From assembly GCA_964466945.1 (NCBI GenBank), contig CAYXPA010000006.1, forward strand, positions 189 through 64,188: a stretch of DNA of 64,000 nt, given 5' to 3'. Made by a program: the position numbers and the translations under genes. Shown here one piece after another: positions 93-43,330 of this stretch. Every line of letters starts with the position of its first letter. Positions within the stretch are counted from its first letter, which is position 1. The notes below the pieces were generated by a model that saw only the letters and a program-made list of their open reading frames with translations, was not told the origin of the DNA and did no database searches. Origin of the DNA: an uncultured Verrucomicrobiota bacterium. Lineage in GTDB: Bacteria; Verrucomicrobiota; Verrucomicrobiia; Limisphaerales; J093.

Positions 93-332
93 TCACTGCT
101 TGGGCTTGAGCAGCGGGTGCTTGTAGTGGCGCTTGACGCTCTTGCAGGAATCCAGCGACTGGCGGGCGTCGTCGTTTTCCCAGACCTCATCGAAGACCGG
201 CCGGGTGGGGCGCCGGGGCAGGCGCCGCTCCTTGAGGATGGTGCCGTCGTCCTTGCACAAGATTTCGATGTACCGCGGCTCCTCCAGCGGCCGGAAGCGG
301 TTCGACAAAATGACCAGGACCTTGCGCTGCAT
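93..332 (-). CDS. hypothetical small protein (79 aa)
   Basis: ATG at 332 inside ORF 93..494. The protein runs MQRKVLVILSNRF...KHPLLKPKQ. G/C third-position bias is strong, as in the real genes here. No family recognised. Confidence 0.5.
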   Translation of the reverse strand: MQRKVLVILSNRFRPLEEPRYIEILCKDDGTILKERRLPRRPTRPVFDEVWENDDARQSLDSCKSVKRHYKHPLLKPKQ

Positions 333-473
333 GGTGTGCTCGTGTGCCCGCGCGCTGCGAGGCTGCGGGCGGCGTGGAAATACACCGCGCCGCCCTAGCC
401 GACAAGCCGGATTGACCCGCCGCAACCCGCGGAACTTTCCCAGCCCCGGTCGTCGGTGCCCGGCAACTAACCA

Positions 474-515
474 CAGGCATCCGGCGTCTGGCATCTGGCA
501 TCCGGTATCCGAACC
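474..515 (+). repeat. 7-bp tandem repeat tract (about 6 units, CCGGYAT-like)
   Basis: Read directly: CAGGCAT CCGGCGT CTGGCAT CTGGCAT CCGGTAT CCGAACC. Confidence 0.8.
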
Positions 516-610
516 CGCCCCACAGCGTCGGCAAGCCGGCCTGCCTGCGCCAAGCGAAGCACGGCAGGCAGGCGCACTCTAGCGAGGTAGGGCGCCGCTG
601 CGCCGGCGCC

Positions 611-743
611 GTAGCGCAGGTTTCCAACCTGCCGTACCGCCTACTTCCAGTCGGCAGACCGCCGGAATACCGCAGCGCCACGGAACACGCCCGCTTCTGC
701 GGGTGGGAAACCCGCGATCCGGCAGACCACAGGTCCGCGCTAC
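611..743 (+). repeat. 133-bp REPIN-like unit, copy 1
   Basis: Inverted termini GTAGCGCAG...CTGCGCTAC with internal hairpins. It differs from copy 2 at 10 of 133 positions by manual alignment. Confidence 0.9.
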
Positions 744-782
744 GCTGCCGGGCGGGCCGCCTGCCGCTCCCGACTCCCGCCG

Positions 783-859
783 CCGGTATCCGATATCCGC
801 CATCCGGCATCCGGCCTATGGCATCCGGTATCCGGTATCCGGTATCCGGCCTCCGTCAT
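783..859 (+). repeat. 7-bp tandem repeat tract (11 units)
   Basis: CCGGTAT CCGATAT CCGCCAT CCGGCAT CCGGCCT ATGGCAT CCGGTAT CCGGTAT CCGGTAT CCGGCCT CCGTCAT, in exact 7-bp phase. Confidence 0.9.
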
Positions 860-1036
860 CCCCCCTTCTCACTCCTCCCTCCTCGCTTCTCACTCCTGAC
901 TGGGCAGGGCTCCGCTGCGCCGGCGCCCTACCCCGGCCGCGCCGCAGCGTGGCCGTACTGTGCGCCCAGCCTATGGGGTGCGGTACCTTGCCGCCGCGAG
1001 GAGGGAAGCCCGCGACCCAGGGCGGCGCGCCGTCGG

Positions 1037-2086
1037 TCAGGAGGCCGCCGGTTCGGCCGGCTTGGAGGCGGCCTTGAGCGCGGCCAGTTCTTTTTCGAGC
1101 TCGGCCAGGCGCCGGGCCATCTCCGGCAGGCGGTCCAAGAGCGCGTAGAGTCGTTTGGCCTGCGCGGCGGGACGGGCGGGGGACCCCAGCCAGACCTGGC
1201 CGGACGGCACGTGGTTGGTCACGCCGGACTGGGCGCCGATGACCGCGCGGTCGCCCACGTGGATGTGGCCCACCAGCCCGGCTTGGCCGGCCACGGTCAC
1301 ATAGTTGCCCAGGCGCGTGCTGCCGGCGATGCCGGCCTGCGAGATCAGCAGACAGTGCTGGCCGATGACCACGTTGTGGGCGATCTGCACCAGGTTGTCC
1401 ACCTTCGTGCCCCGGCCGATCACCGTGGCGCCGAGCGCGCCGCGGTCCACCGTGACGTTCGCCCCCAGTTCGACATCGTCCTCGATGACCACGTGCCCGA
1501 CCTGCGGCACTTTGCGGTGTTCGCCCCCGTCGAGCACGTAGCCAAAGCCGTCCGAGCCCACCACCACGCCGGCGTGCAGGCGCACCCGGCAGCCCACCTG
1601 CGTGCCCGCGTACAGCGTCACGCCGGGAAACAGCCGCGTGTCCGCGCCCACCTGACAGGCCGCGCCCACGTAATCGCCGGCCATGAGCACCACGCGCGGG
1701 CCGATCTGCGCGCGCTCCGCCACCACGCACAACGGGCCGATGTGCGCGGTGGGGTCCACGCGGGCGCCGGCCGCCACCACGGCGGTGGGGTGGATGCCCG
1801 GCGGAAATTCCGGTTCCGGGTAAAACCACGGCAGGATGCGGGCGAAGGCCACGCGCGCGTTGGGCACGCAGATGAGGGTTTTGCGCGAGGTCACTTCCCC
1901 GGCCACCAAGATGGCGGCCGCGGCGCTGGCCTCGGCGCGGGCCAGGTGTTTCGGGGTTTCGGCCCAGGTCAGGTCGCCCGGACCGGCGGCGTCGGCGGGG
2001 GCGAAGCCGGTGAGGGTGACGGTCGGGTCGCCCAGGACACGCCCCTCGAGGCGTTGGGCCAGTTCGGCGGCGGTGAAGGCGGGCAT
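1037..2086 (-). CDS. lpxD: UDP-3-O-acylglucosamine N-acyltransferase (LpxD)
   Basis: 349-aa ORF with left-handed beta-helix hexapeptide repeats and an LpxD-type N-terminal domain. ATG at 2086. Confidence 0.85.
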
Positions 2087-39651: not shown

Positions 39652-41049
39652 ATGTTCAAGAGCATCCTCGATACCTTCGCCAACTGCTTCAAAATCCCGG
39701 AGCTCAAGTCCCGGATTTTCTTCACGGTTTTGCTGTTGGCGGTTTGCCGGCTCATTGCGTTGATTCCCATCCCGGGGCTGGACGGCGCCGCGCTGGCCCA
39801 GTACTTCGAGCAAAACGCGCAGCAGACCGGCGGTTTGCTGGGGATGTACAGCCTGTTTACGGGCGGGGCGATGGAGCGCTGCGCCATCGGCTCGCTGGGC
39901 ATCATGCCCTACATCAGCGCCACGATCATCATCCAGTTGATGAGCGCGGTGATTCCCCAGTTGAGCAAGCTCGTCCGGGAAGAAGGCGGCCGGGTTAAGA
40001 TCATCCAGTACGGTCGGTACCTGACCGTGCTCTTGTGCCTGGGCCAGGGCTTCGTGATGTCCCTGGGTTGGGAGAACCCGCAGAAGGTTTTCGGCGAAAG
40101 CTTCGTGGGCAACCTGGTGCTCGTGGACAACGTGTGGTGGTATCGCATCCAGACCACGCTGATCCTGACCACCGGGACGGTGCTGTTGATGTGGCTGGGC
40201 GAGCAGATCAGCGAGCGCGGCATCGGCAACGGGGCCTCGCTGGTGATCACCATCGGCATCGTGTCCCGCGTGCCGCAGGCCATCACGGCCCTGTGGTTGA
40301 TGTTCTTCCCGCCGCGCGGGGTGCAATCGAACTACAACCTCTTCCACGCCATTGCGCTGGTGTTGCTGCTGGTGGCGGTGGTGGCCGCGGTGATCGCCGT
40401 CGTCCAGGCCCAGCGCAAGGTGCCGGTGCAGTACGCGCAGCGGGCTGTGGGACGCAAGGTGTACGCCGGCGGCACCTCGTTCCTGCCGCTGCGGGTGAAC
40501 TACTCCGGGGTCATGCCCATCATCTTCGCCCAGGCCATCCTGATGTTCCCCGAGAAAATTTTCTACACGCTCGCCCAAGTGACCGAAAAGAGCATGGCCG
40601 GCTTCTCGAAGGTCTGCCAGGCCGTCGCCGTGGCCTTGCAACACGGCAGCCCGCTGTACATTTCCCTCGAGGCCCTGATGATCCTGTTCTTCGCCTACTT
40701 CTGGGTGGCCACCCAGTTCAACGAGGTGCAGATCGCCGACGACCTCAAGAAGTACGGCGGCTACATCCCCGGCGTGCGGCCCGGCCAGGCCACCAGCGAC
40801 TTCCTGCACCGGGCGATGAGCCGGATCACGCTGGCGGGGGCGATTTTCCTGGTGGTCATTGCCATCATTCCCACCTTGCTGTTCAAATGGGCGGGGGTGC
40901 CCTTCGAGGTGGGCCAGTTTTTTGGCGGCACCAGCATGTTGATCACAGTGGGGGTCATGTTGGACACCACCCGGCAGATGGAGTCCCACCTGTTGATGCG
41001 GCACTACGATGGGTTCCTGAAGAAAGGCCGCATCAAGGGGCGCTTTTAG
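39652..41049 (+). CDS. secY: preprotein translocase subunit SecY
   Basis: 465-aa, 10-TM SecY. Confidence 0.95.
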   Translation: MFKSILDTFANCFKIPELKSRIFFTVLLLAVCRLIALIPIPGLDGAALAQYFEQNAQQTGGLLGMYSLFTGGAMERCAIGSLGIMPYISATIIIQLMSAVIPQLSKLVREEGGRVKIIQYGRYLTVLLCLGQGFVMSLGWENPQKVFGESFVGNLVLVDNVWWYRIQTTLILTTGTVLLMWLGEQISERGIGNGASLVITIGIVSRVPQAITALWLMFFPPRGVQSNYNLFHAIALVLLLVAVVAAVIAVVQAQRKVPVQYAQRAVGRKVYAGGTSFLPLRVNYSGVMPIIFAQAILMFPEKIFYTLAQVTEKSMAGFSKVCQAVAVALQHGSPLYISLEALMILFFAYFWVATQFNEVQIADDLKKYGGYIPGVRPGQATSDFLHRAMSRITLAGAIFLVVIAIIPTLLFKWAGVPFEVGQFFGGTSMLITVGVMLDTTRQMESHLLMRHYDGFLKKGRIKGRF

Positions 41050-41144
41050 AGGCGGCGCCGGCGATGCACCCGGACGGTTCTACGGGCGGATAACGGCGGC
41101 GCCACAGTTCTTTCACACGCGGGAGACTCGTGCAAAAGTAAGGC

Positions 41145-41918
41145 ATGATCCCGATCAAAAACGAGCGGGAACAGGCGGCCATGCGCGCGGCGGGCGCGGT
41201 CGCGGCGGCCGTCCTGGCCGAGGTGGCGGCGTTCATCCGGCCCGGGGTGACCACGGCCGAGGTGGACCGGTTTGCCGCCGAGTGCATCCGCCGGCACGGG
41301 GCGCGCAGCGCGTTCCTGGGATACAAAAAGTACCCCTGCCATGTGTGCATCTCGGTCAACGAAGAGGTCGTCCACGGCCTGGCCGGGCCGCGCCGCTTGG
41401 AGTTCGGCGACATCGTCAGCCTGGACGTGGGCGTGGTGTACCACGGGTTCATCGGCGACAACGCCCGGACGGTGCCGGTGGGCGGGTGCAGTCCCCTGGC
41501 GCAAAAATTGATTGATGTCACCGAGCAGGCCCTGTATATCGGCATCGGGCAGGCCCGCGCCGGCAACCGGGTGGTGGACATCTCCCGCAGCATCCAGGAG
41601 TTCGTGGAACGCCACGGCTTCAGCGTGGTGCGCGAGTTTGTGGGTCACGGCGTCGGACGCACGATGCACGAGGAGCCGCAGGTGCCCAATTACGTGGACG
41701 GCAAGAAATCGCCGCGGCTCCAGCCGGGCATGACCCTGGCCATCGAGCCGATGGTCAATGCCGGCCGCCCGCAGGTCCGGGTGCTGCGCGACGGCTGGAC
41801 CGTGGTCAGCGAAGACGGGATGCCGTCCGCGCACTTCGAGCACACGGTGCTGGTGACTGCGGGCGACCCGGAGATTTTGACATGTTACCGGCCGATGCCT
41901 GCCGTGTTGGCGCGGTGA
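41145..41918 (+). CDS. map: type I methionine aminopeptidase
   Basis: Canonical MAP metal-ligand pattern (D..D..H..E..E). Confidence 0.95.
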   Translation: MIPIKNEREQAAMRAAGAVAAAVLAEVAAFIRPGVTTAEVDRFAAECIRRHGARSAFLGYKKYPCHVCISVNEEVVHGLAGPRRLEFGDIVSLDVGVVYHGFIGDNARTVPVGGCSPLAQKLIDVTEQALYIGIGQARAGNRVVDISRSIQEFVERHGFSVVREFVGHGVGRTMHEEPQVPNYVDGKKSPRLQPGMTLAIEPMVNAGRPQVRVLRDGWTVVSEDGMPSAHFEHTVLVTAGDPEILTCYRPMPAVLAR

Positions 41919-42121
41919 TTGTGAAGACCCTCGCGCCTGGCGTGTGGCAGGTCGAGCTGCCCAACGGCCACCGGCTTGTGGCGCGGGTGCGCCGGCGCGA
42001 GCTGGCCCGCGCGGCGGCAGCGGGGCTGGGGCCGGGCTCCCCGGTGGAAGTGTGGGTGACGCCCGGCGACATGTCGCAGGGCCTGGTAATTTTTGAAGCG
42101 CAGAACCAGTTGAAAGCGTGA
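41882..42121 (+). CDS. infA: divergent translation initiation factor IF-1-like S1-fold protein
   Basis: Sits in the canonical infA slot between map and rpmJ. The N-terminal 30 aa align without gaps to E. coli IF1 (TL.P....VEL.NGH). The rest is highly divergent. Overlaps map by 37 nt. Confidence 0.65.
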
Positions 42122-42125
42122 GACC

Positions 42126-42239
42126 ATGAAAGTTCGAGCGTCCGTCAAGCGACTCTGCGAGCACTGCAAAGTGGTGCGTCGCAAGGGCGTGATCCGTGTC
42201 ATTTGCACCAACCCGCGCCACAAGCAGCGGCAGGGCTAG
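42126..42239 (+). CDS. rpmJ: 50S ribosomal protein L36 (Zn-ribbon form)
   Basis: Hand-translated as [37 protein letters not shown]. Too short for the ORF track. Confidence 0.9.
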
Positions 42240-42264
42240 GCTTTTCTCAACTTGCAATCCTCCT

Positions 42265-42660
42265 ATGGCTCGCATCCTCGGCGTTGACATCCCCGGCAAC
42301 AAGCGCATTGACATTGCGCTGCGCTACATCTACGGCATCGGCCCGTCCAACTCGAAGGTCATCTTGGAACGCGCCCAAATTGACCCGTCCATCCGGGCCA
42401 AGGACCTGACCGAGCAGCAACTCTCCCAAATCGTGCATGCCATCCAGGAGGGGCAGTACGTGATCGAAGGAGATTTGCGCCGGGAAATCGGCCTCAACCT
42501 CAAGCGCCTGCAGGCCATCAAATGCTATCGCGGCATCCGCCACCTCCGTGGCCTGCCCGTGCGCGGTCAACGCACCCAGACCAACGCCCGCACCCGCAAG
42601 GGCCCGCGCAAGACCGTGGGCGTGCAGCGCAATCCCAACGCCAAGGCGGGCATCCACTAA
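42265..42660 (+). CDS. rpsM: 30S ribosomal protein S13
   Basis: [14 protein letters not shown]... is a canonical uS13. Confidence 0.95.
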
Positions 42661-42679
42661 TCCCGGATTAATCTGAGCT

Positions 42680-43330
42680 ATGGCTGAAGCCAAACCCAAT
42701 CCTGCTCCCGAATCGGGCAAATCTTCCCCGCCAGTCGCCCCGGCCGCCAAGCCGGCCAAACCGGCCAAGCCCGCCGGAGGCGACGCCGGTGAAAAGACCG
42801 CCGCCAAAGGTGCGGCGAAACCGGCGGAAAAAGCTTCCGACAAAGGCGCGGATAAAGCGGTCAAGGCCGCCGCCACCGCCGCCGCTCCGGCAGCGCCTGA
42901 AGCTCCCGCTGCCCCCACGGCGGCCGAATTGCTGGCCGACGACCTGGCCGGCAAGAAGATCATCAAGGCCAAGGGCGCCAAGAACATCACCAGCGGCATC
43001 GCTCACATCCTGGCCACGTTCAACAACACCATCGTTTCGATCACCGACATGCAGGGCAATGTCCTCGGCTGGGCCACCGCCGGGCGTGCCGGCTTCAAGG
43101 GCTCGCGCAAGAGCACGGCCTTTGCGGCCCAGCAAGTGGCCCAACTGGCCGCCCGCCAGGCCATGGCTCACGGGATGCGCGAGGTGGAAGTGCACGTCAA
43201 AGGCCCCGGCTCGGGCCGCGAGTCGGCCATTCGCGCCCTGCAGGCCATTGGCCTGGACATCACCGTGATCAAGGACGTGACCCCGATCCCGCACAACGGA
43301 TGCCGGCCGCGCAAGAAGCGCCGCGTTTAA
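42680..43330 (+). CDS. rpsK: 30S ribosomal protein S11 with ~90-aa Ala/Lys/Pro-rich N-terminal extension
   Basis: The uS11 core starts near [18 protein letters not shown]. The protein is 216 aa, against about 130 aa for a typical uS11. Confidence 0.9.

Follow-up and report, generated by a model that had tools for sequence, protein, structure and literature searches.

A 64,000-nucleotide (nt) stretch of DNA from an uncultured Verrucomicrobiota bacterium of the order Limisphaerales (contig CAYXPA010000006.1 of GCA_964466945.1, an assembly of 230 contigs that totals 4.21 Mb and is 94.8% complete), hereafter the window, carries a spc/alpha ribosomal cluster in which the listing of open reading frames (ORFs) gives the gene row secY, map, a short ORF, rpmJ, rpsM, rpsK, rpsD and rpoA. 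The subject here is the short ORF (41882..42121, plus strand), which starts with ATG, ends with TGA and encodes 79 amino acids. It lies between the methionine aminopeptidase gene map (41145..41918, plus strand) and rpmJ (42126..42239, plus strand), which encodes the 37-amino-acid ribosomal protein L36, that is, in the position of infA, the gene of translation initiation factor IF-1; it is called below the slot copy and its product the slot protein. Few bacterial proteins are as strongly conserved as IF-1, and its gene commonly serves as a single-copy marker. An earlier note on this DNA had described the ORF as a highly divergent IF-1-like gene, and its length, its position and its overlap of 37 nt with the 3' end of map (41882..41918, plus strand) were all confirmed by the ORF listing.

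The GC content of the ORF at codon positions 1, 2 and 3 is 0.78, 0.49 and 0.85, as in the neighbouring real genes of the window, and this coding-like pattern, together with a strong synonymous bias among its orthologs (see below), indicates that the ORF has not simply stayed open by chance in DNA rich in GC. The predicted product is small and basic, with an isoelectric point (pI) of about 9.5. An RNA element in place of a gene was also considered and was rejected, since a search of the region 41000-43000 gave no Rfam match at E<=1 and no promoter-like sites; terminator-like sites were found there on the minus strand only, at chance level.

The last 12 codons of map, past the conserved PEILT motif, enter the 5' end of the slot copy. 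Across 20 loci of the order that were examined in detail, the IF-1 frame is the conserved one in this overlap and the tail of map is variable, and in the less diverged orthologs the overlapping frame reads like a canonical IF-1 N-terminus; the ATG at 41882 is therefore supported as the start. An alternative GTG start (41915, overlapping the TGA of map) was rejected because an upstream ATG or GTG stands at the same place in all 20 loci, and it is also countered by the residues before position 12, which align with the canonical N-terminus in the less diverged orthologs. A Shine-Dalgarno-like GGAG (41870..41873, plus strand; a consensus match only) is located 8 nt upstream of the ATG, within the map codons for P-E-I, and the printed sequences of the loci have GGAG or GGAA at the corresponding place in 17 of 20. 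At the other end, the TGA stop and a gap of 4 nt before the ATG of rpmJ (42119..42125, plus strand) place the two genes at a translational-coupling distance; in all 20 loci the stop lies between -23 and +25 nt from the rpmJ start, with an ATGA overlap in seven. As for Map itself, its variable tail of 8-12 residues after PEILT corresponds to the 5' end of the slot copy read in another frame, and in a relative from which the slot gene has gone (G015) Map stops three residues after PEILT.

Relationship to IF-1 and predicted fold

The slot protein falls well below the cut-offs of the curated IF-1 models. The TIGR00008 equivalog hidden Markov model (HMM) gave 18.0 bits against a cut-off of 61.15, with residues 10-71 aligned to positions 8-67 of the 69 in the model, and PF01176 (eIF-1a) gave 15.3 bits against 30.2, covering residues 11-39 only. 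The HMM scoring proposed in the earlier note thus shows that the ORF is not an ordinary IF-1. No NCBIfam model other than TIGR00008 touches the protein. A match to the ligand-binding TOBE_2 domain (PF08402; 15.6 bits against a cut-off of 21, E 0.018) was set aside as a generic resemblance among oligonucleotide/oligosaccharide-binding (OB) folds.

The relationship to IF-1 emerges from other comparisons. The slot ORF aligns collinearly with the canonical IF-1 copies of the same genome as far as about residue 72, two residues being inserted in a loop, at an identity of 18% to one of them (type A) and 27% to the other (type B). A profile built from the ten orthologs of the genus only matched 11 PDB IF-1 sequences end to end, positions 1-71 to 1-69, with E-values of 6.9e-8 to 7.8e-5; these were 11 of the 13 sequences found at E<=10, the other two matches being insignificant. 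Moreover, a graded series of slot orthologs connects the window protein to near-canonical forms scoring 97-98.6 bits with TIGR00008. On the evidence of these alignments, the slot ORF is homologous to IF-1 by common descent over its full length. The eight identities to Escherichia coli IF-1 listed in the earlier note (T16, L17, V24, E25, L26, N28, G29 and H30) were correct when compared with chain 9fco_I, where M1 and D5 match too, and its observation of a replaced middle segment and an arginine-free C-terminus was borne out by the alignments. Homology does not end at residue 30, after which the note had seen a strong departure from IF-1: the collinearity and the profile match continue beyond that point.

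AlphaFold2 predicted an OB barrel with strands at residues 7-18, 21-25, 31-35/36, 54-60 and 63-70, a helix at 38-47 and a disordered tail at 73-79. The predicted local distance difference test (pLDDT) score was 81.7 with a wide alignment and 78.6 with the genus-only alignment, which served as a control without any canonical IF-1. In Foldseek searches against PDB, bacterial IF-1 structures took ranks 1-13 for the wide-alignment model and 1-12 for the genus-only model, with template modelling (TM) scores of 0.61-0.74, and were followed by eIF1A and aIF1A. The slot protein is thus predicted to keep the barrel of IF-1, five-stranded and with a helix between strands 3 and 4, this helix being longer than that of IF-1.

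Canonical infA copies and ribosome contacts

Two canonical infA genes were found elsewhere in the genome, by the whole-genome search that the earlier note had suggested. Type A (G000:C125:9455-9661, minus strand) and type B (G000:C154:4318-4521, minus strand) gave 101.4 and 92.7 bits with TIGR00008. They are not contamination, since the GC content of their contigs is similar to that of the window (0.654-0.677 and 0.686, respectively) and both types recur in relatives. All 41 genomes of the order that were surveyed contain at least one copy above the TIGR00008 cut-off, and the number of copies outside the slot is two in 23 genomes, one in 17 and three in one. The slot copy, type A and type B are present together in most of them. 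None of the 30 best-scoring canonical copies of relatives (L024-L053) adjoins map or rpmJ. The canonical copies are well conserved across the order, at 77-100% identity for type A and about 66-100% for type B. The slot copy is therefore not the working, essential and usually sole initiation factor of a bacterium: two canonical copies accompany it, and the slot is empty in three relatives (G015, G031 and G033). Of the options raised in the earlier note, a paralog with the essential copy elsewhere is supported by these findings, and a remodelled, lineage-specific IF-1 as the only copy is not.

The canonical copies have conserved neighbours of their own. Type B infA is located directly downstream of a gene for an RNA-binding protein with an RNA recognition motif (RRM; RNP-1 type) and a Gly/Arg-rich tail (G000:C154, locus L002, 1492-2233, minus strand). 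According to tblastn, 20 of the fetched loci encode such a protein in their flanks, and 19 of these contain type B infA; this conserved RRM-infA pair may be a stress- or cold-regulated unit. Type A infA (L001, G000:C125) is followed by a gene for a proline-rich protein of about 395 amino acids (273-1460, minus strand), and a homolog of it stands beside IF-1 in 12 fetched loci.

On the 30S subunit, IF1 occupies the aminoacyl (A) site beside S12 and flips out A1492 and A1493; in E. coli the C-terminal Arg69 is essential for 30S binding and Arg64 makes electrostatic contacts (PMC4611024, in the part available). That article, as far as accessible, bears out the statement in the earlier note that the C-terminal arginines matter to 30S binding. 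For Thermus IF1, the available part of another report (10.1101/2023.10.27.564398) lists contacts of A16, P18, A20, R23, R41, R46 and R64 with helix 44 (h44) of the small-subunit RNA, of A1, E3, Y60, D61 and R64 with S12, and of K2, Y35, G38, K39, M42 and R66 with the 530 loop; residue-level IF-1 contacts were not found in bioRxiv 10.64898/2026.06.26.734871. Positions are numbered here by the E. coli chain 9fco_I counted from Met1, which equals the numbering of type A of the genome and makes E. coli Arg69 R70; nine residue names common to the Thermus list and the E. coli chain share their numbers, from which the equivalence of the Thermus numbering was taken.

Seventeen positions were compared, 16 of them being published 30S contacts. 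The window protein retains only D61, a conservative change of K39 to R, and H30, which is conserved in the family. It is replaced at P18, R23, G38, R41, K42, R46, Y60, K64, R66 and R70: it has A18, Q23, R35, R38, L41 and A42 at contact positions and, beyond the insertion, G48 for R46, G62 for Y60, Q66 for K64, L68 for R66 and E72 for R70. R70 is present in 69 of 75 out-of-slot copies and in 0 of 10 slot copies of the genus, R66 in 74 and none, Y60 in 71 and none, G38 in 70 and none, P18 in 49 and none, and K39 in 70 and none, with R in all ten instead. R41 (71 of 75 against 2 of 10), R46 (66 against 2) and R23 (66 against 6) persist in some of the slot copies, and H30 (69 of 75) and D61 (75 of 75) are found in all ten. 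To judge from these alignments, the slot protein has lost nearly all of the h44, 530-loop and S12 contact residues, including the C-terminal arginines. R70 is kept in only 2 of 45 divergent slot copies. In G027 and G028, too, where the slot copy is near-canonical, R66 and R70 are already gone, which suggests that the C-terminal change was an early step of the divergence.

In comparison with bacterial IF-1 (InfA; TIGR00008, PF01176; PDB 1AH9, 1HR0 and 9FCO chain I), the slot protein thus shares descent, a length of about 72-79 amino acids, OB topology and the map-rpmJ slot, as well as the LxNGH turn and a P-x-D turn near the end. It differs in the absence of P18, G38, R41, R46, Y60, R66 and R70, in an Arg/Ala-rich helix that is longer by two residues, in a C-terminus that is acidic or neutral and not Arg-rich, and in being neither the sole copy nor indispensable in relatives.

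Selection and distribution of the slot copy

Selection was assessed by the method of Nei and Gojobori (NG86) on codons 14 onward, outside the overlap with map, in three phylogenetically independent close pairs. The ratio of non-synonymous to synonymous substitution rates (dN/dS) was 0.19, 0.15 and 0.11, compared with 0.00-0.06 for four neighbouring genes; distant pairs (dN/dS 0.3-0.6) were not relied on, as their dS is near 1. Summed over the three pairs, there were 50.2 synonymous and 21.8 non-synonymous differences. The ratio of the proportions of non-synonymous and synonymous differences (pN/pS) was 0.18 from codon 14 to the end (binomial p 2e-12), 0.07 for residues 14-43 (p 1.7e-10) and 0.29 for residues 44 to the end (p 9.8e-5). 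The slot copy is under clear purifying selection, as the comparison of orthologs proposed in the earlier note has brought out, and the plain decay that the note had also allowed for is not supported. In the same pairs pN/pS was 0.022 for canonical type A and 0.031 for type B, so that the slot copy, although of the same family, is far more diverged and is constrained about 6-8 times less tightly at non-synonymous sites. Constraint is strongest in residues 14-43, around the genus-invariant LPNGH..LV.R..RR core, where G20, W22, L26-H30, L32, V33, R35, R38 and R39 do not vary. Across ten species of the genus 19 columns are invariant, 16 of them outside the overlap with map, while synonymous sites turn over.

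Of the 41 genomes surveyed in the order, 36 have the slot copy beside rpmJ and three an empty slot; in the remaining two, G022 (78% complete) and G029 (82%), rpsM was not found. The order slot gene-rpmJ-rpsM is kept in all 20 loci first fetched and map precedes it in 19, the twentieth ending at a contig edge; in all 20 the frame is open and the start conserved. Within the genus, identity is 49-94% for the slot protein, compared with 79-98% for Map, 92-100% for L36, 89-99% for S13 and 88-99% for SecY. Across the order the TIGR00008 scores of slot copies form a gradient, from 98.6 (G028) and 97.0 (G027) through 74.7, 70.4, 60.4 and 55.5 down to 34, with about 20 in the genus of the window and 18.0 in the window itself. 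The slot proteins of the order are basic, with a median pI of 9.7.

The empty slots are those of G015, from the same family (map-rpmJ gap 146 nt), and of G031 and G033, from the same order (51 and 40 nt); rpmJ is retained in all three. A weak match to the slot protein in the gap of G015 ('GVWRAE', 2.2 bits) was judged to be chance after its frames had been read. The G033 genome also contains a tandem IF-1 pair outside the cluster (L062, G033:C11:64187-67080), consisting of a divergent IF-1-like ORF of 46 bits (1195-1407) followed by a canonical copy (1482-1697), both with an insertion of one residue before the NGH turn.

A sample of 80 other Verrucomicrobiota genomes, each at least 90% complete, was then considered. 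An IF-1 above the cut-off was found in 79, and in 26 (by row count) a slot-aware profile picked up one more IF-1-like copy, with a low score of 38-73 bits. Position was checked for 12 of these 26 copies: nine adjoin map or rpmJ and three, all from genus g32, do not. Among eight canonical copies fetched from the phylum, six lie outside the slot and two (G046 and G088) in it. In G094 and G100 rpsM comes straight after map, and no IF-1-like frame lies between them. The genus g32, which belongs to the same class as the window, carries a different divergent IF-1-like ORF of about 70 amino acids away from map and rpmJ (L107 in G118, L108 in G103, L116 in G055). Such a copy occurs in all six g32 genomes sampled, and neither map nor rpmJ was seen within about 1.5 kb upstream of rpsM in G103 and G118.

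A quick maximum-likelihood tree (LG+G4; 122 rows, 73 columns) has many unresolved forks. It places 70 of the 75 out-of-slot rows in one clade, with a support of 93 in the Shimodaira-Hasegawa-like approximate likelihood ratio test (SH-aLRT), and within it a type A subclade of 30 rows (support 89) and a type B subclade of 37 (support 94). Outside this clade the slot rows make up a comb of long branches, their median terminal branch being 0.57 against 0.049 for the out-of-slot rows, and the canonical slot copies of G088, G046, G027 and G028 adjoin the clade on short branches. The tree suggests that the ancestral infA was in the slot and that an old duplication put a copy outside the cluster, which later gave rise to both canonical types. 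The slot copy would then have diverged step by step, probably along several lineages in parallel, and have been lost now and then; 73 columns do not establish this order of events.

Outside the slot, the cluster of the window has some other features. The common gene order is secY-adk-map, and in the window secY (39652..41049), at the upstream end of the gene row, is followed directly by map after a gap of 95 nt (41049-41145), with no adk between. The rpsK ORF (42680-43330, plus strand) encodes 216 amino acids from the first ATG, and an Ala/Pro/Lys-rich extension of about 85-90 amino acids precedes the conserved core of S11. This N-terminal extension may be genuine, since there is no internal ATG before the core.

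Possible role of the slot protein

The slot ORF is probably a positional descendant of infA that no longer works as an initiation factor in this order of Verrucomicrobiota, and that encodes an accessory, dispensable and presumably RNA-binding OB-fold protein coupled to map and rpmJ. Duplication of infA out of the cluster would have released the slot copy from its role in the A site, after which its product, small, basic and with the OB fold, may have come under a different and weaker constraint. Translational coupling would tie the synthesis of this protein to that of Map and L36, and the protein would most likely bind RNA, ribosomal or messenger, through an arginine-rich surface of strand 3 and the helix (R31, R35, R37-39 and R43), rather than sitting in the A site of the 30S subunit as IF-1 does.

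Several observations weigh against this interpretation. The protein evolves fast, with 49-60% identity between subclades of one genus as opposed to 79-98% for Map, its C-terminal half varies (total length from 72 to 88 amino acids, pN/pS 0.29), as might also be expected of a protein whose own function is slight, and its loss from three relatives means that whatever it does is not essential. The case for RNA binding is drawn from predicted fold and charge alone, and the slot clade of other classes is near-neutral (median pI 6.6), so that RNA binding need not be common to the whole phylum. The NG86 estimates are rough, with about 60-66 codons per pair and dS near saturation in distant pairs. The sequencing runs listed were 24 DNA runs and included no RNA run with the locus, which says nothing on expression.

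Alternatively, the ORF may be kept mainly so that ribosomes carry translation over from map to rpmJ, its peptide having little or no function and being constrained only to avoid a harmful or aggregating product. The start inside map, the close spacing to rpmJ in every locus, the fast evolution with a variable C-terminus and the three empty slots in which rpmJ was not lost are all in line with such a coupling spacer, which is the main rival explanation. We nevertheless regard it as rather unlikely, because coupling alone does not need a conserved OB fold of 70-80 amino acids, as predicted here, and accounts poorly for the low pN/pS of residues 14-43 or for the invariant columns that persist despite synonymous turnover. 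A relic of infA that has stayed open by chance in DNA of 68% GC would have the low HMM scores, the functional copies elsewhere and the losses in some relatives on its side, and long chance ORFs do occur in all six frames of the GC-rich window. This reading is, however, already largely refuted and highly improbable in view of the synonymous excess, the open frame and conserved start in all 20 loci, the retention in most genomes of the order, an indel that is in frame, the coding-like GC pattern and the divergent slot copies kept in other classes of the phylum.

It is scarcely more credible that the slot protein is a lineage-typical working IF-1 that acts in the A site of the 30S subunit, perhaps in place of the canonical copies under certain conditions. 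Its canonical gene position, the predicted IF-1 fold, the retention of H30 and D61, a basic patch at the place of the GKMRK loop and the naming of one ortholog as 'translation initiation factor IF-1' by the Joint Genome Institute (JGI) would agree with that. Against it stand the two far better conserved canonical copies, the loss of the gene in three relatives and the contact residues, since of the 16 published positions only D61 is identical, with K39 conservatively replaced by R and the equivalents of Arg69 and Arg66 lost.

The view of the slot copy as an accessory descendant of infA may, more speculatively, be extended. It is conceivable, if somewhat doubtful, that these genes constitute an undescribed Verrucomicrobiota family of IF-1-derived OB-fold proteins that diverged in the former infA position once the canonical gene had left the cluster, perhaps in several parallel events, and that took up a new job at the ribosome or on RNA. 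Such a job might possibly be that of a co-translated factor for assembly or quality control of the small subunit, a regulator of the mRNA of the cluster itself, or a conditional competitor or tuner of canonical IF-1. In a large protein collection 11 relatives were found, none with a precomputed Pfam domain, and the JGI-named ortholog is one of them. In the nearest protein-atlas clusters, whose labels are 'hypothetical' or 'IF-1 family', only 38% of the members carry PF01176, and the look-alikes there come mostly from Verrucomicrobiota. A full-text literature search found no description of a divergent IF-1 paralog in the slot.

Plastid infA was repeatedly pseudogenised or lost after a working copy had moved to the nucleus, a pattern reportedly described by Millen and colleagues in 2001. 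This appears to be the closest analogy known to us: in both cases the gene left in the ancestral ribosomal-protein cluster deteriorates when a functional one is present elsewhere, with the difference that the plastid copy is a true pseudogene and the slot copy is open and under purifying selection. In Chlamydia trachomatis, from a related superphylum, there is likewise more than one infA-like gene; in the available part of the source (PMC5811630) 'infA2' (CTL0575) appears as a gene name in expression tables only, and a divergent slot copy is not analysed there.

Here the working factor is encoded outside the canonical position, so that annotation by position would mislead, and one ortholog is already called IF-1 by JGI. 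The locus can be considered a natural experiment on what may become of the IF-1 fold after its release from the A site, with scores that fall from about 98 to about 18 bits in a single order and selection that persists on the most divergent copies. A new role at the ribosome or on RNA, if true, would make the slot protein an accessory translation factor confined to one phylum, which is large and poorly studied. If there is no new role, the slot copy is still a clear example of a core translation gene in slow subfunctional decay, which bears on marker-gene phylogenomics.

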